Shown: positions 2,375 through 21,208, counted from the first letter of the stretch. The stretch: 64,000 nt of DNA from an uncultured virus (IMG/VR IMGVR_UViG_3300030118_003994) (IMGVR_UViG_3300030118_003994); one strand, 5' to 3'. Notes: a model not told the origin generated them from the letters alone. Numbers and translations are program-made.

Positions 2375-2536
2375 ATGATTAAATTAACTAAAAAAGAAAA
2401 AGAAATAATTGCTTATATATTATCTTTAGATGTTGAGAATTTTAAAGGAGAAACACAAAAAAATATTATAAACGTTCTAGCTAAATTGCAAGAACAAAAC
2501 ATTTGGGGAGATATACCAAAAAAAGATTTTAACTAA
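2375..2536 (+). CDS. Early hypothetical protein, 53 aa (MIKLTKKEKEIIAY...)
   Basis: Hand-translated ORF directly after promoter. Confidence 0.7.
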   Translation: MIKLTKKEKEIIAYILSLDVENFKGETQKNIINVLAKLQEQNIWGDIPKKDFN

Positions 2537-2543
2537 ATATTAA

Positions 2544-2694
2544 TTAAAAAAGGAGGTGAAACGATGAGAACGAAGTAGATATAAGTCAAGTTTGAACTTT
2601 CTACAATTAAATTGTTGCCCTAAGGATTAAACCGACAAAGATACTTTTAATTGTAATATCAAAAAGTCAGTGTCAAAAAGCTTCCTTTTTTTAA
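2544..2694 (+). ncRNA. Long rod-like structured RNA/attenuator candidate with perfect SD and MRTK mini-ORF
   Basis: AAAAAAGGAGG(2546-2556)/CTTCCTTTTTT(2681-2691); TACAATTAAA(2602-2611)/TTTAATTGTA(2646-2655); TTGTTG/CGACAA. Confidence 0.6.
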
Positions 2695-2720
2695 GTAACT
2701 AAAACAAAAACAATAATATT

Positions 2721-2888
2721 ATGAACCTAAACAGAACAAATCAATTAGAGTTAGAAATCAAAGCACTATCAAATATTTTAAAAAGAAATGAAGATTCAGA
2801 AATTTTAAGTGCAAATGATGAAGTAATAATAAAAAACTTACTCGAAGAAATAAAAACTGAATATAGAATAAACTTAATGCAAGACTAA
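2721..2888 (+). CDS. Early hypothetical protein, 55 aa
   Basis: Hand-translated ORF after TAACTAAAAC leader. Confidence 0.7.
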   Translation: MNLNRTNQLELEIKALSNILKRNEDSEILSANDEVIIKNLLEEIKTEYRINLMQD

Positions 2889-2906
2889 AACTTAAACAAT
2901 AATACT

Positions 2907-3110
2907 ATGAAAGATTTAACCAAAAAAGATTTAAAATTAATTATCAATACATATCAAAATTATATGAATAATTTTATATATGACTTTCAATCTTTTAATT
3001 TAACCGATAAAGATATAAACAACATATATTTAGAGATAGCTAAACAAGATTTACAAGCTACATTTTATGGTAAATTAGATGATGAAATGACAATAATATC
3101 TAAAAGATAA
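2907..3110 (+). CDS. Early hypothetical protein
   Basis: ORF with shared leader motif. Confidence 0.7.
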   Translation: MKDLTKKDLKLIINTYQNYMNNFIYDFQSFNLTDKDINNIYLEIAKQDLQATFYGKLDDEMTIISKR

Positions 3111-3248
3111 GTTATACTGATGAGCATTCAATATGCGAAACAATAAGATAAGAAAAGCCAATGTATTAGGTTGCTAAACGTACCACCGTAATGAAAAAAG
3201 CGTAAAAATCCTATGTAACAACTAAAGTGTTATCTTATTGTCTATAAC
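3111..3248 (+). ncRNA. Hammerhead ribozyme, type I, with large stem III insert
   Basis: Stem I GTTATA(3111-3116)/TATAAC(3243-3248); core CTGATGA(3117-3123); stem II GCAT/ATGC; GAAA(3137-3140); stem III CAATAAGATAA(3141-3151)/TTATCTTATTG(3230-3240); GTC cleavage triplet 3240-3242. Confidence 0.9.
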
Positions 3249-3267
3249 AACTAAAACAAATTATATT

Positions 3268-3435
3268 ATGTATGAAAAAGAGAATGCAATTATGATTGCA
3301 ATATTAAACGGTAATGATACTATAAAGATTGACGATACAATTATCAACTTACCAACACCGCAAAAATCCGGTACTATCAGACAACAAGAAACGTATGCAA
3401 GATTAAAAGCAAAAGAACTATTAAATAATATATAA
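3268..3435 (+). CDS. Early hypothetical protein (true start probably ATG 3268)
   Basis: ATG follows CAACTAAAACAAATTATATT leader just 3' of the ribozyme. Confidence 0.7.
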   Translation: MYEKENAIMIAILNGNDTIKIDDTIINLPTPQKSGTIRQQETYARLKAKELLNNI

Positions 3436-3513
3436 TTATGCAAAAAGAAACTGATAAATTAATTTGGATAAGTACATCTCAAATCGGGACAACTTACACA
3501 GAAACAAGATAAT

Positions 3514-3726
3514 ATGAATACATTTGATAAATACAAAAAGAATTTAGAATATGATAATAAATATATATATTCTTTTGGGACTGCGGTTGCGCACTATGAT
3601 AATAATTTTGTTTATCCTATTGATTGGGAAATAGAATACAAAGGCGAAAAACTATCATCGTCTCCAACGACTAGCAAGCATATCAATTATGCTACTAACG
3701 AACTAAATTTAACATTAAACAAATAA
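3514..3726 (+). CDS. Early hypothetical protein
   Basis: YSFGTAVA...SPTTSKHIN motif seen in small phage early proteins. Confidence 0.7.
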   Translation: MNTFDKYKKNLEYDNKYIYSFGTAVAHYDNNFVYPIDWEIEYKGEKLSSSPTTSKHINYATNELNLTLNK

Positions 3727-3728
3727 TT

Positions 3729-3947
3729 ATGACAAAAATGGAATTAATACTAAAAGTAGCAGAAAGATTGGCTCACAAAGAAAATATAGCTACATCATAT
3801 AATGAAATAGCAGAAATTGTATTAACTTATGATGAGGGCTGGAAGTATGAGGGAGAAGAAATGATTGAGTTAATAGACGAAATATTATCTGTTAAAAAAA
3901 ATATAATTAAAAGTTTAAATTCAACACAAAAAGATTTATCATTTTAA
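3729..3947 (+). CDS. Early hypothetical protein
   Basis: ORF in array. Confidence 0.65.
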   Translation: MTKMELILKVAERLAHKENIATSYNEIAEIVLTYDEGWKYEGEEMIELIDEILSVKKNIIKSLNSTQKDLSF

Positions 3948-4112
3948 TAACTAAAAACAAATAACTATGACAAGAAAAATGAATAAATTAGAACAATACT
4001 GCTTTGATTTAGCAGTAGAAATAATAGGAAGTGATTTAGACAATGTAAATAGAGTGGCTGATATATTGTATAGAGAATTTGAAGATAAAATAATAACTAA
4101 AAACAAATAACT

Positions 4113-4337
4113 ATGAAAACAAAAGTAAATGAAGATAATAGAGTAGATTACATCTGTGATTATGAAATGGGAATGTTAAACGAAATAGACACCATACACC
4201 TGTTTGCCAACCTAATTGAAACAGGAATGGCTTGGAGTTTACAGGGGCATTATGGAAGAACGGCTAACGCCTTAATACAAAACGATTTGATAGACAACAA
4301 AGGAAATATTAATCTAATAAACTATTACGAAATATGA
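4113..4337 (+). CDS. Conserved small phage protein
   Basis: LIETGMAWSLQGHYGRTA motif common in phage early genes. Confidence 0.75.
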   Translation: MKTKVNEDNRVDYICDYEMGMLNEIDTIHLFANLIETGMAWSLQGHYGRTANALIQNDLIDNKGNINLINYYEI

Positions 4338-4477
4338 AAAAATTAATTGAAAAACACTTAGCAGAAATAATAGTATTGTCTGTAATTTTACTAGCGTGTT
4401 CAAGTTGTGGCACTACAAGTCCACACCACGCTCCAGGTATAACTGAGTGGAACAAGCAATACCAAAGATGTAGATAA
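4334..4477 (+). CDS. Small lipoprotein, 47 aa
   Basis: MKKLIEKHLAEIIVLSVILLACSSCGTTSPHHAPGITEWNKQYQRCR: basic N-terminus, hydrophobic core, lipobox Cys; ATGA overlap with upstream stop. Confidence 0.65.
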   Translation: MKKLIEKHLAEIIVLSVILLACSSCGTTSPHHAPGITEWNKQYQRCR

Positions 4478-4492
4478 CTAAAAAAAAAAATT

Positions 4493-4753
4493 ATGAAAAA
4501 GAAAGATTTATTACAAGACTGGGAGATTGTTCAACAAGAATACTATGAGCATCTTAATCGTTCAGAATTAGAGGAAAAATATTCTGATTGGTTTTATAAT
4601 GATGTAGATGTATGGGAATACTGCAAAGATATGGATAAAAGTGAAATGATTGACGAACTTATTCAAGATGAATTAAGATACCGAGCAGATGATACTATTG
4701 AAGAACTTAAAGAAACAATAGCATACATTGAGAAACTAAATTTTAATAACTAA
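4493..4753 (+). CDS. Acidic early protein
   Basis: Strongly D/E-rich 86-aa ORF. Confidence 0.7.
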   Translation: MKKKDLLQDWEIVQQEYYEHLNRSELEEKYSDWFYNDVDVWEYCKDMDKSEMIDELIQDELRYRADDTIEELKETIAYIEKLNFNN

Positions 4754-7315: not shown

Positions 7316-7789
7316 ATGAACATATTTTATCTAGACAAATGTCCTAAAAAATCTGCACAACTACAATACAATAAACATGTAGTTAAGATGATACTTGAGT
7401 CGGCACAAATGTTGTGTACTGCCCACCGGTACTATGGTAATGATAATGTCCCATATAAAACAGCACACCTAAACCATCCGTCTTCTGTATGGTGTAGAGA
7501 AAACTATCATCAATATGTATGGCTTTTTCAACACATGATGCACTTAGGGGATGAATACACTAAAAGATACAACAAGACGCATAAAAGTATAACTAAATGT
7601 TGGGAGTTTTTATGCCACACTCCACCAAACATACCAAAAGGAACGTTTACACAACCACCACAATGTATGCCTGATGAGTATAAAGATAAATGTAGTATCC
7701 AAGCATATTGGAACTACTATATAGCAGAGAAACACTCTGTTGCTAGTAAAGATGAAAAAATATATAAAACTAAACCAAATATTAACTAA
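7316..7789 (+). CDS. Pyrimidine-dimer DNA glycosylase / DenV-like family protein
   Basis: MNIFYLD...KHVVKMILESAQML...YKTAHLNHPSSVW...PQCMPDEYK. Confidence 0.8.
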   Translation: MNIFYLDKCPKKSAQLQYNKHVVKMILESAQMLCTAHRYYGNDNVPYKTAHLNHPSSVWCRENYHQYVWLFQHMMHLGDEYTKRYNKTHKSITKCWEFLCHTPPNIPKGTFTQPPQCMPDEYKDKCSIQAYWNYYIAEKHSVASKDEKIYKTKPNIN

Positions 7790-9253: not shown

Positions 9254-9841
9254 ATGAGTAAAGAAAACATGAAACTGTGGAATGCAGTAGAAAAAACAAA
9301 TCCAAAGTACACTAAACAAGTAGGCTTTGGTCGTAAATTTACAACAGTTAACGCTCAATATCAAGTAAGATGTGCTACTGAGCAATTTGGACCTCTTGGC
9401 AAGGGTTGGGGTGTTGATAATGAGTTTTTTAATCCTATTATTGAAGGACTTATTGGATACACTGCTAAACTTTGGTGGCAAGATTCTGATGGTAAACATT
9501 CATTTGATATTAACGCATCTATATCTACACATAGTAAATCTGGTAAATTAGATGACGAGTGTTTCAAAAAAGTAACCACAGACGCACTTACAAAAGGTTT
9601 GTCTAAACTAGGTTTCAATGCAGATGTATTTATGGGTCAATATGATGATAACAAGTATGTTGCACAGATGAAGAAAGAGTTTTCTAAAGAAGAAAAAAAG
9701 AAAACAAAAATGACTGCTGACATATTTAATCTTATGATGGAGGCTATTAGTAAAGGAAAGGGTGATAAAGTAAAAGAAAGAATGGGGGACTACACAATGA
9801 CTAAGCCTCAAAAAGACAAACTATTAAAAGCTTTAGCGTAA
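9254..9841 (+). CDS. Rad52/Sak-like single-strand annealing protein
   Basis: FTTVNAQYQ...EQFGPLGKGWG...ECFKKVTTDALTKGLSKLGFNADVF; adjacent to exonuclease. Confidence 0.7.
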   Translation: MSKENMKLWNAVEKTNPKYTKQVGFGRKFTTVNAQYQVRCATEQFGPLGKGWGVDNEFFNPIIEGLIGYTAKLWWQDSDGKHSFDINASISTHSKSGKLDDECFKKVTTDALTKGLSKLGFNADVFMGQYDDNKYVAQMKKEFSKEEKKKTKMTADIFNLMMEAISKGKGDKVKERMGDYTMTKPQKDKLLKALA

Positions 9842-10608
9842 TGATTGATACATTAAAAACAGAATTAATACTATCTGATGATGAAAAGTATTATGCTGAT
9901 AAAGAACATGTGTCTAACAGTATGCTTTCTTTATTAAACAAATCACCTCAACATTTACAAAGATTATTAGATGGGCATCAGGAAGAAACTAATGCCCTAA
10001 TATTTGGAAGTGCTTTTCACACCTATGTATTAGAACCAGAAAAATGGAGTCAAAATGTAGCTGTGTATGAGGGTAAAACCAGAAGAGGCAAGGCTTGGGA
10101 TGAGTTTCAAGAACAAAATAAATCAAAAACTATTATCAATAAATCAGAGTATCAAAAGATTGTTGCCATGCGTAGAGCCTTGTGTACTCCGGCAGACAAT
10201 TACGATTTTATAGAAAACTCTTTACATGAAGTCGTTAGAGTTTGGGAAATGCAAGGCGTAAAGTGTAAAGGAAAGGCTGATTGTGTTTATGAAACTAACA
10301 ATGGTAAAAAAATAATTGTAGATGTTAAGACTACACAAGACGCAAGTCCTGATGGCTTTAGAAGGTCGGCCTACAAGTATGGTTACCATAGACAAGCATC
10401 TTTTTATGTTGATGGCTTTGGTGCTGATGAGTTTTGGTTTGCTGTAGTTGAAAAAGATTCTCCATATAGAGTTGGTTTATATCAAGCTTCGGAGGATTTT
10501 ATAAACAACGGTAGAGATGAGGTTTCGGTATTACTAGAAACATATAAAGAATATTTTATAGATAAAACAAAACAAGTACAAGATTATTATTTTAAAGGAG
10601 AATTATGA
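9841..10608 (+). CDS. RecE/exonuclease VIII-like PD-(D/E)XK nuclease (DUF3799-like)
   Basis: VSNSML, FGSAFHTYVLEP, CKGKAD, IVDVKTT, YGYHRQASFY, VEKDSPY. Confidence 0.85.
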   Translation: MIDTLKTELILSDDEKYYADKEHVSNSMLSLLNKSPQHLQRLLDGHQEETNALIFGSAFHTYVLEPEKWSQNVAVYEGKTRRGKAWDEFQEQNKSKTIINKSEYQKIVAMRRALCTPADNYDFIENSLHEVVRVWEMQGVKCKGKADCVYETNNGKKIIVDVKTTQDASPDGFRRSAYKYGYHRQASFYVDGFGADEFWFAVVEKDSPYRVGLYQASEDFINNGRDEVSVLLETYKEYFIDKTKQVQDYYFKGEL

Positions 10609-11189
10609 CAAAAAGAAAATTAGATTTATACGACATAGTTGTTACTGTTTGTAGTCACTATGGATTAACAGAAAAAGAATTTTTTTCTAAAAGAAGAAAA
10701 AGAAACTATGTAATAGCAAGACATGTGTCTATGTATCTTATGCGTAATCATGGTAAAATAAATTCTTATTTAGGTATTAAAAAATACTTTGAAAGTAACG
10801 GTAGTATTTCTAATCATGCTACAGTTATTTATGCAGTAAGAGAAATGGAAGATGCTATGGATGGTTTTGATAAAAGAAGAAAAAAAGATATAGAAGAAAT
10901 ATCTGAAAAACTTTGTGTATTTAGTAGAAAATATATAGATATTCATTGGTTTATGAAAGTAAACAAGGGAGAAAAAGTGCATTTAAAGTACGGTATAGAC
11001 GGAGAAAAAACTATTATATGGGAACACAAATCTTTAGAAACCAGAGGAAACAGAGTTTATGTTAAAGGAAAGATTAAAAAAGGAGAAGAGTGGATTGATA
11101 GAGATGATATGATGTATGAGGAAAATGGCTTCATATGTGCAGGTGATGGTCATAAAGTGTTTTCTACAGGAAGTCAAGTTTTAATATAA
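10605..11189 (+). CDS. Protein with N-terminal DnaA domain IV-like (Bac_DnaA_C) helix-turn-helix
   Basis: VCSHYGLTEKEFFSKRRKRNYVIARHVSMYLMR...NHATVIYAV matches the DnaA C-terminal R..r.iv.aR..amYL...DHtTV pattern. Confidence 0.75.
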   Translation: MTKRKLDLYDIVVTVCSHYGLTEKEFFSKRRKRNYVIARHVSMYLMRNHGKINSYLGIKKYFESNGSISNHATVIYAVREMEDAMDGFDKRRKKDIEEISEKLCVFSRKYIDIHWFMKVNKGEKVHLKYGIDGEKTIIWEHKSLETRGNRVYVKGKIKKGEEWIDRDDMMYEENGFICAGDGHKVFSTGSQVLI

Positions 11190-11817: not shown

Positions 11818-12483
11818 ATGAACACTGAACAGATGGCTAAGACAAAATCTTACTGGTTTTCACATGACACAGACGCATGGAGTGATATTAATATAGAACT
11901 TATGATGTCTGTATATGGTGCTGAGGGTTATGGGTTCTATTGGATTATAGTAGAAACATTATCAATGCAGGACAATTATAAATTACCAGTTAAAAATAAA
12001 GGATATTTAGCTGTTCTGTCTAGAAGAATGCAAACTACTCCAGAAAAACTTTCTGAGTTTATAGAGGATTGCATTGAATCATTTAATTTATTTGTTTCTG
12101 ATGACTCATTCTTTTGGTCAGATAGTTTGATTAAAAGATTGGGTATCAGAGATAATGTAAAAAAGTCAAGAACAGATGCTGTTATGAAAAGGTGGGGTAA
12201 TTTAGAAAGGTTTGATGAGTTTTGGAATGCTTATGATAAAAAAACAGCAAAAACTAAATGTGAGGCTCTATGGAAAAAAATGTCTAAAGATAAAAAAGAA
12301 AAAGCTATAAACTATATAAGTCAATATAAAAAATCACAGCCTGATAAAAGATACAGAAAAAATCCTGACACATATTTAAGAAACGAATCTTGGAATGATG
12401 AGATAATTAATAACACAAACGGTCAATCACTATCATACGACAATATTAGTAAGGCCGACTTTGACAAAGCATTTAAGGAATGA
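11818..12483 (+). CDS. Replication initiator-like protein (DUF4373/Lin1244-like N-terminus)
   Basis: YWFSHD...YGAEGYGFYWIIVETL; C-terminal FDEFWNAYDKK...KNPDTYLRNESWNDE; precedes helicase. Confidence 0.75.
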   Translation: MNTEQMAKTKSYWFSHDTDAWSDINIELMMSVYGAEGYGFYWIIVETLSMQDNYKLPVKNKGYLAVLSRRMQTTPEKLSEFIEDCIESFNLFVSDDSFFWSDSLIKRLGIRDNVKKSRTDAVMKRWGNLERFDEFWNAYDKKTAKTKCEALWKKMSKDKKEKAINYISQYKKSQPDKRYRKNPDTYLRNESWNDEIINNTNGQSLSYDNISKADFDKAFKE

Positions 12484-18926: not shown

Positions 18927-21208
18927 TGTTTTATTATTTTATGAATATTTATTTTACCCTCAAATATAGTAATAATATTATAAATACCACTATTATAGTT
19001 GGTTAAATCTATGTTTTTACCATTATCTTTTATTATTAACCTACCAATATTATTATATACAAATATATCAACAATTTTATTTATATAAACAATATTTTTT
19101 GTAGGATTTGGATGTAATGTTACCTCTTTATTTCTTAACATTAATTCCACACCTCCGCTCCAACCATCTGAACAATGATTATAAGTTAATACACAAACAG
19201 AATCCCATTCGTGCTCACAACAATATTCATCTACATCTATAACCCAAGCATAACAAGGGTCGTTTAACCAATAAGGATTTCCAGGGCCGGTAACACAGCC
19301 AGCATCATACAAACAATTACTATCATCTACATTTGCTTGTTCATTGTAATTGTACGCATTGACATCCATACATCCTTCAACAATAGATATACACGAACCA
19401 TTGTCAGTATTAGCCAGTGAATCATAGTTAAGAGCAGTACTATCCATGCAGCCGTAAATATAAGGAATACAAGAGAAATCTTCCGTATTAGCGGATGGGT
19501 TGTAATTAAGCATGCTAGGGTCAGTACAACCGTAAATAAAAGGTATACAAGAATTATTGTCTGCATTTGCTAAAGGATTAAAATTAAACATTGTTGAGTC
19601 TGTACAACCAAACACATAAGGAACGCAACTTCCGTCATCAGTATTAGCATTTGGGTCATAATTGAACATACTTGCATCCGTACATCCGTATATATAAGGA
19701 AGACATGTGTCTGGAGTGTTAGCTAAAGGGTCGTAATTAAAGGCTAAAGGTTGCATGCAGCCCATAATAATAGGAATACAACCGCCATTATCTATGTTTG
19801 CTAAAGAATCATAGTTAAACATAGTTGTGTCTGTGCAACCCCATATAGCAGGAGTTAAACAACTACCGTCATTGTAATCAGCAGTAAAGCCTTGTGTGTA
19901 ATATTCTAAATACGATGAATTTGTACATCCTGGAGAATAATAACAGCTACTGTCTGTAGTGTTTGCATCTTCATTATAATTAATTGCTAATGAATCTAGG
20001 CAACCATAAACCTTTTCTTCACATGTGTTTCCACAATTAGAAATAAAACTATAAGGAAATAAAGGTTGTATAAACGGAGGCATTACACTTATTAGCGTGT
20101 CTCCTTCAGGATTTATAAATGTAAAACCACATTCTATTGTAGTCAAACTAGCCTGTGACGATATATGAAATCTAAAAGTTATTGGGTCTGGAGCTGTTAA
20201 GCCTACTTGATACTCATCAGTAAAACCACCAGTGTGTGTAAACTGATAAGATGTATCAGGGTGTATTAGTTTTAAATGAGAACCTACCCAACCATTACCC
20301 ATTAAATCATGTAGTATTAAGGTATACTCACAAGTATCTATAAGCTCCATTGTGTTGGCGTTTGGGTCGTAATTAAACATGGTGCTATCTGTACACCCAA
20401 ATATCTTTAATGTTTGACAACTTCCATCATCAACAGTAGCAAATGGATTCCATTCTACATAATCATCATCTGTACACCCTAGTATAGGAGGGCATGAATC
20501 AGAAACAAATACATGTGCAGTGTCGGTTCCAAAAGCAGGATTTGTACCATACACTAAAGTATCATTACATTGTTTTACAAAATAAGAACCGTCTTGACCT
20601 TGCCAAAGTGAACCCTGCATACCATCTCCATAGGTGTCATATATATTAAAAACTAAAGGTCCTTTTGGTATTTGAACCGGAATTACAACCGTAGCGTAAT
20701 CTGGTTGTGAGTTGTAGCCTCCGCCAGAAGCATACATTATTCCATTTGTATCTTTAATATCCCAGCTGGTTTCACCTTGATATTGGTCTAAGTTTATTAT
20801 AACTTTAGCTGGTACTAGCTGTACCGGTGGTGGTTGAGGCATACACTGTGGAACAGTTCTATTATGAACCAATCCATTTGAAAATGTACTTACAGGATAA
20901 TTTACAACTGTATCTCCACATATAGTTACATAATACTCACCATTAGTAATACCATCTCCGTAAGAATCAAATATAACCCAAGATATATTTGCAATACTAT
21001 CTGGTATGTATACCGTGTCATGATTCATTACATTTGGCTGTGTGTAATGACCATAAGAAACATAATCTATAGTATCTCCTTGATAAACATCTTTGTGTAA
21101 TGTCCATTTAGTTTCAGATGGATACGAGTCCGTCTTAATGCTTATAATAACTTCTTTTTGTGCAAAAGCTAATATAGGAAATAAAAATAAAATTATTAGT
21201 TTTTTCAT
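18923..21208 (-). CDS. Secreted Cys-rich repeat protein with T9SS type A C-terminal sorting domain
   Basis: Sec signal MKKLIILFLFPILAFA; about 10 GC(T/M/L)D..(A/M).NY...AN.DDGSC repeats; C-terminus LHPNPTKN...VYNNIGRLI...IDLTNYNSGIY...KIIKQ. Confidence 0.85.
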   Translation of the reverse strand: MKKLIILFLFPILAFAQKEVIISIKTDSYPSETKWTLHKDVYQGDTIDYVSYGHYTQPNVMNHDTVYIPDSIANISWVIFDSYGDGITNGEYYVTICGDTVVNYPVSTFSNGLVHNRTVPQCMPQPPPVQLVPAKVIINLDQYQGETSWDIKDTNGIMYASGGGYNSQPDYATVVIPVQIPKGPLVFNIYDTYGDGMQGSLWQGQDGSYFVKQCNDTLVYGTNPAFGTDTAHVFVSDSCPPILGCTDDDYVEWNPFATVDDGSCQTLKIFGCTDSTMFNYDPNANTMELIDTCEYTLILHDLMGNGWVGSHLKLIHPDTSYQFTHTGGFTDEYQVGLTAPDPITFRFHISSQASLTTIECGFTFINPEGDTLISVMPPFIQPLFPYSFISNCGNTCEEKVYGCLDSLAINYNEDANTTDSSCYYSPGCTNSSYLEYYTQGFTADYNDGSCLTPAIWGCTDTTMFNYDSLANIDNGGCIPIIMGCMQPLAFNYDPLANTPDTCLPYIYGCTDASMFNYDPNANTDDGSCVPYVFGCTDSTMFNFNPLANADNNSCIPFIYGCTDPSMLNYNPSANTEDFSCIPYIYGCMDSTALNYDSLANTDNGSCISIVEGCMDVNAYNYNEQANVDDSNCLYDAGCVTGPGNPYWLNDPCYAWVIDVDEYCCEHEWDSVCVLTYNHCSDGWSGGVELMLRNKEVTLHPNPTKNIVYINKIVDIFVYNNIGRLIIKDNGKNIDLTNYNSGIYNIITIFEGKINIHKIIKQ
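18961..18968 (-). promoter_or_regulatory. Possible internal promoter for lysis genes (TATATTTG)
   Basis: Exact TATATTTG on - strand about 35 nt upstream of holin ATG. Confidence 0.4.

Follow-up and report, generated by a model that had tools for sequence, protein, structure and literature searches.

A genuine-looking type I hammerhead with a 78 nt loop III insert between two small early genes of an uncultured marine phage

A predicted hammerhead at an early gene junction

The 64 kb stretch of DNA from the uncultured virus IMGVR_UViG_3300030118_003994, analysed here at its full length and referred to as the window, contains a genuine-looking type I hammerhead at positions 3111–3248 on the + strand, located between two small early genes of an uncultured marine phage and predicted to cleave its own RNA. 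We think it probable that this is an authentic member of a type I hammerhead family, that it processes the early polycistron, and that the long insert in its third stem is filler; our confidence is higher for the family membership than for this reading as a whole, and lower for the processing role. All of the hammerhead core elements are present, with stems I, II, and III of 6, 4, and 12 base pairs (bp) respectively, as determined both by direct reading and with an independent descriptor script, and the core described in an earlier note on this DNA is thus confirmed. The same note gave stem III as 11 bp; these 11 pairs (3141–3151 with 3230–3240) are real, but the A15.1-U16.1 pair (A3140-U3241) had been left out, and the total is 12 perfect pairs, as is also evident from a repeat search. 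Position 17 is a C (C3242) and not a G, as a type I hammerhead requires, and the layout is that of type I, with stem I open, stems II and III closed, and the G10.1-C11.1 pair present. The position in the gap between the genes was also correctly described, as the ribozyme starts 1 nucleotide (nt) after the stop at 3110, sits exactly between this stop and the leader of the next gene, and is on the same strand as the early genes. The cut placed after C3242 agrees with the site predicted from the hammerhead consensus. The component parts are listed in Table 1.

Table 1. Parts of the predicted hammerhead and its immediate neighbours in the window
Feature	Position	Strand	Remarks
Upstream small early open reading frame (ORF), 67 amino acids	2907–3110	+	TAA stop at 3108–3110 adjoins the ribozyme
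Stem I, 5' strand, GTTATA	3111–3116	+	Pairs with TATAAC at 3243–3248, 6 bp
Catalytic core CTGATGA (C3-U4-G5-A6-U7-G8-A9)	3117–3123	+	Next to stem I
Stem II, GCAT/ATGC, loop TCAAT, closing pair G10.1-C11.1	3124–3136	+	4 bp
GAAA (G12-A13-A14 and A15.1)	3137–3140	+	
Stem III, 5' strand, 12 nt	3140–3151	+	100% complementary to 3230–3241; unchanged in L153, L155, and L156
Loop III insert, 78 nt	3152–3229	+	Conserved ends (3152–3173, 3208–3229); indel-rich centre; possible 4 bp helix 3167–3170/3210–3213
Stem III, 3' strand, ending with U16.1	3230–3241	+	
C17 of the GUC site	3242	+	Predicted cut 3242/3243, from the hammerhead consensus
Stem I, 3' strand, TATAAC	3243–3248	+	Predicted 5' terminus (5'-OH) of the downstream RNA
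Standard early-gene leader, TAACAACTAAA... then ATG	3245–3267	+	Common to many early genes of the phage
Downstream small ORF, 55 amino acids	3268–3435	+	ATG is 25 nt past the predicted cut

The descriptor specifies CTGANGA, a stem II of at least 3 bp, GAAA, a stem III of at least 4 bp opening with A-U, a position 17 that is not G, and a stem I of at least 4 bp, and 3111–3248 is its sole match on both strands of the window. When the window was shuffled 300 times with dinucleotide composition preserved, any loose match to the descriptor was present in ten of the shuffles, and stems of at least 6, 4, and 8 bp were present in none. The minimum-energy fold of 3105–3255 is the hammerhead fold, with an unremarkable energy z-score (-1.39), and stems II and III have pair probabilities of 0.92–0.98 in every context tried (138–451 nt), notwithstanding the insert.

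A family of hammerheads in marine phage contigs

By its sequence, the window ribozyme belongs to a large family of type I hammerheads positioned at gene junctions of uncultured marine phages. Loci from related phages (n = 103) were found via a nuclease-like ORF (9841–10608) and a DNA-binding-protein ORF (7316–7789) of the window, and scripts applied to all 103 identified a single convincing hammerhead, at locus L032, where stem I is the same as in the window, stem III is short and has a 4 nt loop, and the position after a stop codon is also the same. Viral contigs were then matched with a pattern in which the stem I 5' strand, the core (with position 7 as N), and CGAAAC were fixed, and stem II, loop II, and everything downstream were free. 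This gave 43 loci with 38 unique ribozymes, including those of L032 and the window, and 31 short copies were aligned for analysis of covariation. Within this alignment 97.2% of cells pair, compared with 25–44% in slid registers, and the covariation score is 0.404 as against 0.100 in shuffles, none of 500 of which reach the observed value. Changes on both sides of a pair are seen at three of the four pairs of stem II and four of the six pairs of stem III. The 3' strand of stem I, which the pattern had left free, pairs in 100% of cells, and loop II is conserved though it too was free, with the consensus TTTAATA, to which TTCAATA of the window conforms. A covariance model built from the 31 copies detects the window copy with 32.5 bits (E 7.6e-5), but places its 3' end wrongly at 3179 because the insert exceeds the span of the model. 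A second match of the model within the window, at 20178–20226 (12.3 bits, E 2.7), was treated as noise.

A second pattern, with most of loop II fixed and stem I left free, matched at least 126 loci with 113 unique copies. These contain many different stem I sequences, each of which is complementary, so that stem I covaries across the wider family. With 5 bp as the minimum length set in the script, 178 of 189 unique family copies have a stem I of exactly 6 bp. The earlier note had proposed that a hammerhead would be put in doubt by relatives lacking the core and stem covariation; the relatives keep the core, and their stems II and III covary.

The placement of the family relative to genes was evaluated for 196 unique copies using ORFs of at least 30 codons, with 184 copies evaluable on the upstream side and 181 on the downstream side. 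An upstream ORF ends within 60 nt in 137/184 copies, and its stop lies between -2 and +5 nt from the first base of stem I in 107/184. Downstream, an ATG-started ORF begins within 120 nt of the cut in 171/181 copies, and at a distance of 19–31 nt in 135/181. The window copy fits this placement rule throughout, with a stop that abuts stem I and a start codon at a distance within the common range.

Several loci have more than one self-cleaving ribozyme candidate. At both L117 and L133 there are two ribozymes ~1.2 kb apart in one contig, and at L199 (401–793) two family hammerheads 368 nt apart flank a very short coding stretch; a pairing can also be drawn between the 5' half of the first and the 3' end of the second. 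At L112 a Pistol ribozyme (RF02679; 2265–2329) scores 54.9 bits against a gathering score of 34.5 and lies ~760 nt downstream of the hammerhead, suggesting that two self-cleaving ribozyme classes are present in one phage early region.

The loop III insert and its variation in close relatives

The large loop III had been considered unusual, although it is less so than was assumed. Among the matches listed, the 3' end could be located in 112 copies, of which 88 have loops of no more than 6 nt, eight have 7–13 nt, and 15 have 19–70 nt, and most of the loops are 3–6 nt within an overall family range of 3–70 nt. The 78 nt of the window is the longest loop III seen among these matches, and is at the end of a continuous tail. 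An apparent loop of 259 nt at L199 is an artefact of the two tandem ribozymes. Long stem III extensions of ~35–50 nt recur as similar cassettes with different stem I sequences or flanks (L139 and L166; L123 and L138; L143, L154, and L159; L230 and L285; L223 and L237), and some of the long extensions may be conserved units.

A metagenome scan for the stem II of the window gave nine loci. L152 differs from the window by 3 mismatches in 1296 nt and is not independent, because it is the same phage. L153, L155, and L156 share the flanking genes, the core, and the 12 bp stem III, and have inserts of ~68–69 nt; L155 is the same as L153 over the aligned stretch. L158 also shares the flanking genes and has a short stem III of 9 bp with a loop of ~7 nt, as read from the alignment. 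Relative to the window, L156 is 98.0% identical in the upstream ORF and 95.8% in the downstream ORF, has 59/60 ribozyme positions outside the insert in common, and is 71.8% identical in the insert when gaps are counted; the corresponding values for L153 are 91.4%, 95.8%, 59/60, and 53.8%. In L158 the upstream ORF is 91.4% identical and the downstream ORF 167/168, with stem III replaced and the insert absent. The single ribozyme changes are at core position 7 in L156 (G in place of the U in the window) and in loop II in L153, both positions that are free to vary. Divergence at third codon positions of the flanking ORFs is 6.6% for L156 and 11.2% for L153 (3/24 and 7/24 at four-fold sites), and at these third-position rates the probability of one or no change in 60 positions is 0.089 and 0.007 respectively. 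The relative identities and third-position rates therefore indicate that the ribozyme is under purifying selection, and that the insert is changing at or above the silent-site rate.

Changes within the insert are concentrated in its centre (~3174–3207), and the ends are conserved in L156 and largely so in L153. Using RNAalifold with the three variants, stems II and III are kept, and the only helix that is added is the 4 bp one noted in Table 1. Covariation of the insert in related phages had been suggested as a check on its function, and none was seen, with 0/21 predicted pairs covarying among the three variants. The 12 bp stem III of the window is invariant among three close relatives. No stable fold is predicted for the centre of the insert. 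The insert gives no match to an Rfam family at E<=10, and no homologue was found elsewhere in the window or in 150 loci beyond the leader motif described below. A promoter box of the TAnnTTTG type, a consensus of the Bacteroidota, is absent from 3152–3229. Coding by the insert was considered and rejected, as the short frames from an ATG shared by the window, L156, and L153 differ by eye in both length and sequence. Its origin as a relic of the downstream gene was also rejected, since repeats D1 and D3 lack collinearity and the local alignment does not reach significance (256/2000 shuffles are as good).

Four public runs were compared as assembled contigs, in which RNA ends are not visible; one of these, X20, is the only RNA library and has 0.05 of the sampled words. 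The insert is present in contigs from X7 (record 27) and X20 (record 10), with many indels of 1–3 nt between 3162 and 3203, and another X20 contig (record 9) has 63 other letters in place of 3143–3238. Several contigs from marine runs share just 3108/3109–3142 with the window and then diverge, with the X20 example continuing into a short stem III. Taken with the relatives, the 78 nt insert looks like a tolerated, weakly constrained, and fast-drifting filler of the stem III hairpin, in which only the 12 bp closing helix matters.

The phage and its early region

The window is phage DNA with a G+C content of 29–35%. Small co-directional ORFs on the + strand extend to ~16.5 kb, with replication and recombination genes at 9–16 kb, and the - strand bears the structural genes and that for the large terminase. 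Identity of this terminase to its counterparts in cultured phages does not exceed 42%, with matches mostly to phages of Flavobacterium, Cellulophaga, Maribacter, and Tenacibaculum, and the phage is a distant relative of Flavobacteriia podoviruses. The public runs containing the region are marine or seawater metagenomes. A BLAST search with 2500–4500 against cultured phages gave no match, and one with the 47 nt 5' half of the ribozyme gave a single match at chance level (E 3); an exact 25-mer search in viral contigs gave 0 matches.

Many of the early genes have in common a leader of the form AACTAAAACAAATAACT followed by ATG, and the beginning of this leader coincides in part with the 3' strand of stem I. 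The motif (TAAyAACTAAAACAAATAACT then ATG) recurs between 2700 and 7810 on the + strand, for example at 3945, 4091, 4744, and 4914; its start precedes the ATG by 22 nt, or by 23 nt in the case of the gene that follows the ribozyme, and no Shine-Dalgarno-like sequence is present. The insert of the ribozyme has a further copy at 3216, with an in-frame TTG 22 nt beyond it at 3238.

A 25 nt motif with partial dyad symmetry is present three times on the + strand (1524–1548, 1697–1721, and 1806–1830), with 0 occurrences expected by chance. All three copies are within an ORF-poor stretch (915–1860) directly ahead of the gene that opens the early block (ATG at 1870), and this is likely to be an early promoter or operator region. 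The ORF-poor stretch and its motifs would fit a rightward early transcript that reads through the ribozyme. Sigma-70-like matches in the region are at the level of shuffled sequence (10 compared with 10.9), no terminator-like site was found in the region, and a search for tandem repeats found nothing.

The ORF upstream of the ribozyme has no PHROG match. The downstream ORF has a match over residues 26–51 only, at 62% identity, to the C-terminal part of a ~150-codon frame in L147 (2659–3110), and may represent a longer gene in shortened form. A mini-ORF of 24 codons beyond it (3438–3512, +) is present in the window and L158 and absent from L153, L155, L156, and an X4 contig, which skips 3437–3512, and its presence or absence points to fine-scale mosaicism of the early region. 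A segment just upstream of the ribozyme, 3089–3099, is complementary to 3232–3242. Farther along, a DUF805b RNA (RF02914; 11482–11514, +) exceeds its gathering score of 35.6 with 40.1 bits (E 6.5e-8), and is positioned between an ORF at 10605–11189 and a replication-initiator-like ORF at 11818–12483.

Comparison with known hammerheads

The window copy is not a new kind of element, as hammerheads are already well known in phages. With the type I hammerheads of phages, prophages, and environmental DNA (RF00163, clan CL00010; PMC3088659) it has in common the complete core, the G10.1-C11.1 and A15.1-U16.1 pairs, C17, a 6 bp stem I that is open, closure of both stem II and stem III, and an intergenic position between co-directional phage genes, and processing of polycistrons is the role proposed for them in the published survey. 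The dataset of that survey contains 860 environmental type I hits (Perreault et al., PMC3088659). The RF00163 consensus has a 6 bp stem I and an A-rich loop II, like the marine family; it allows a few nucleotides in loop III, compared with 78 in the window and with 6 or fewer in 88/112 of the marine family matches listed. The best Rfam match of the short L032 copy is to the RAGATH-1 hammerhead (RF03152; 32.6 bits, E 0.0012), with which its open stem I, core, and stem III align, although the upstream hairpin of that model is barely matched. Membership of RAGATH-1 was rejected, since the L032 score falls well short of the gathering threshold (56.3) and the window copy is not matched at all.

Nor is the idea of a hammerhead that assembles across a long loop new. 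A discontinuous hammerhead in the 3' untranslated regions (UTRs) of mammalian Clec2 genes was reportedly described by Martick et al. in 2008, with hundreds of nucleotides inserted at another helix. The Clec2 hammerhead is alike in having a long non-conserved stretch between the core strand and the cut-site strand, across which the ribozyme assembles, but it is a eukaryotic 3' UTR element with no sequence relationship, whereas the insert in the window is closed by a strong 12 bp helix. It is possibly the same as the mouse hammerhead with a very large loop that appears in the survey of Perreault and colleagues. That mouse hammerhead is mentioned there as having a 'very large loop structure' (PMC3088659).

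Hammerheads of phages and prophages flank genes, and their proposed role is to process long transcripts to gene-length mRNAs (Perreault et al. 2011, PMC3088659). In that study, phage hammerheads cleaved ~2 kb constructs in vitro during transcription, and one triple arrangement was cleaved in E. coli. The study also cautions that some phage hammerheads may not be functional, and a 2019 review (PMC6765202) regards the purpose as still undefined and most genomic ribozymes as functional orphans.

Weighing of alternative explanations

Several observations weigh against a functional hammerhead with a processing role. An Rfam scan of the window gives no hammerhead at the gathering score, nor does one of 3000–3400 at E<=10, in which the only row is a chance-level CRISPR-DR51 match at 3057–3088; the Infernal search with Rfam hammerhead models that the earlier note proposed therefore gives no match to the window copy at either threshold. 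Among the sequence and structure features of type I that were tested, the one departure is that the window copy falls short of the RF00163 gathering score of 34 bits, presumably because the long loop III exceeds what the model allows. The pattern-matched family copies also give no match to the Rfam hammerhead models, either at the gathering score (20 loci) or at E<=0.01 (20 others). Two sub-threshold RF00163 matches (26.9 and 30.5 bits) are at other places in family loci and, being away from the family copies, are additional hammerheads. The ribozyme is evidently dispensable, as the covariance model run on related-phage loci L001–L100, leaving out L101–L103, finds a family copy in 1/100, and at L148, which has the closest homologue of the upstream ORF (65% identical), the next gene follows directly without a ribozyme. 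The AU-rich stem I is thermodynamically weak, with a pair probability of 0.61 alone and 0.01–0.43 in longer contexts. There is no indication of an extended stem I across the family, with a mean flank duplex energy of -6.43 kcal/mol compared with -6.60 kcal/mol for mismatched-pair controls (p 0.77), and because family flank pairing is no better than in these controls, a 9 bp pairing of 3090–3099 with 3263–3271, considered either as an extended stem I or as sequestration of the start codon, was rejected as chance. Fast cleavage at low Mg2+ needs a tertiary contact of loop II with stem I; no loop II pseudoknot is obvious by eye and no tertiary contact was found. The cut site is spanned by contigs from the RNA library (X20 records 9 and 10), although these could be uncut RNA or DNA carry-over and decide nothing.

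Chance resemblance of AT-rich DNA to the hammerhead consensus would be in keeping with the loose matches in shuffled windows and with the very many windows that were screened at the first stage, but no shuffle reaches stems of 6, 4, and 8 bp where 6, 4, and 12 bp are observed, homologous copies have covarying stems, and syntenic relatives retain the ribozyme. Chance origin is excluded, as the family evidence refutes it. Alternatively, the ribozyme could be decaying or crippled, with cleavage slowed or abolished by the insertion or by a missing tertiary contact, and could persist as a hairpin or spacer. The weakness of stem I, the lack of an identified tertiary contact, the published caution that some phage hammerheads may be non-functional (PMC3088659), and, ambiguously, the RNA-library contigs that span the cut site are all compatible with this, but we regard it as unlikely given that 59/60 positions are kept in each of two diverged relatives with the changes at free positions, that loop II of the window fits the family consensus, and that loops of 19–70 nt occur with intact cores in 15/112 of the matches listed. 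A functional role for the insert, suggested as a possibility in the earlier note, is very unlikely. It could act as a ligand- or protein-sensing switch that gates cleavage (an aptazyme-like domain), or as a small RNA or decoy carried by the upstream RNA at its 3' end, and the conserved ends of the insert, the 4 bp helix that is kept in all three variants, the recurrence of other long extensions as cassettes (L139/L166; L123/L138; L143/L154/L159), and the suggestion of regulated cleavage via a very large loop in the mouse hammerhead (PMC3088659) are consistent with such a role. However, conservation at the locus is lowest in the insert, with identities of 72% and 54% and with indels, compared with 91–98% for the flanking ORFs; the insert has no covarying pairs, no Rfam family, and no stably folded centre; and it is replaced by a short 9 bp hairpin in L158, whose downstream ORF is nearly identical, and by other sequence in the X20 contig. 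An aptazyme has a conserved, structured sensor domain joined to the ribozyme, and an insert that is 54–72% identical with indels and absent from a syntenic relative does not have this character.

A further explanation is that the ribozyme halves double as portable recombination junctions that shuffle early-gene modules, either besides or instead of processing RNA, with stem III as an exchangeable cassette and the 78 nt insert as a scar of exchange. L158 has the appearance of such a product, as it combines a downstream ORF of the window type (167/168) with an upstream ORF of the L153 type (91.4%, with the same indels) and an unrelated stem III. Similarly, L151 and L157, with a short stem III, share the flanks shown with L154, which has a long one, and L159 and L143 have the L154 cassette between other flanks. 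The segment 3209–3240 resembles the junction and start codon at 3240–3270, as though these had been copied in tandem in degenerate form, with 17/5000 shuffles being as good in what is a post hoc comparison, and the leader motif is present at 3216 as well as at 3245. But the early region is mosaic without the ribozyme too, as seen from the variable mini-ORF and the absence of 2376–2702 in L153, the local alignment of the insert with the downstream sequence is not significant, and two crossovers within very short stretches of homology would be required to swap stem III and keep both flanks. Irrespective of any exchange, the covariation shows that selection acts at the RNA level, and we consider this explanation doubtful, although somewhat less so than a crippled ribozyme.

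A model for processing of the early transcript

In the model that we favour, of an authentic hammerhead with a filler insert, the ribozyme would be transcribed within a rightward early polycistron, and the core and stem II would form first during transcription. Some 78 nt later the 3' arm would close the 12 bp stem III and stem I would then form, placing three helices around the core, whereupon the RNA would be cut after C3242. The upstream message would end in a 2',3'-cyclic phosphate behind a folded tail of 132 nt (3111–3242), comprising stem II and the long stem III hairpin. The downstream message would start with a 5'-OH at U3243, 25 nt before the ATG, with the standard leader of the phage freed from stem I. 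Both cleavage in vivo and the processing of the early polycistron are what we infer from these analyses, and any effect on the stability or translation of the messages is likewise conjectural.

The near-identical phage variants that have a 78 nt, a ~68 nt, or a short stem III constitute a clean natural comparison for the effects of stem III length. The placement rule, with the stop codon abutting the ribozyme and the cut 19–31 nt before the ATG, hints that these ribozymes define the 5' ends of single-gene messages.

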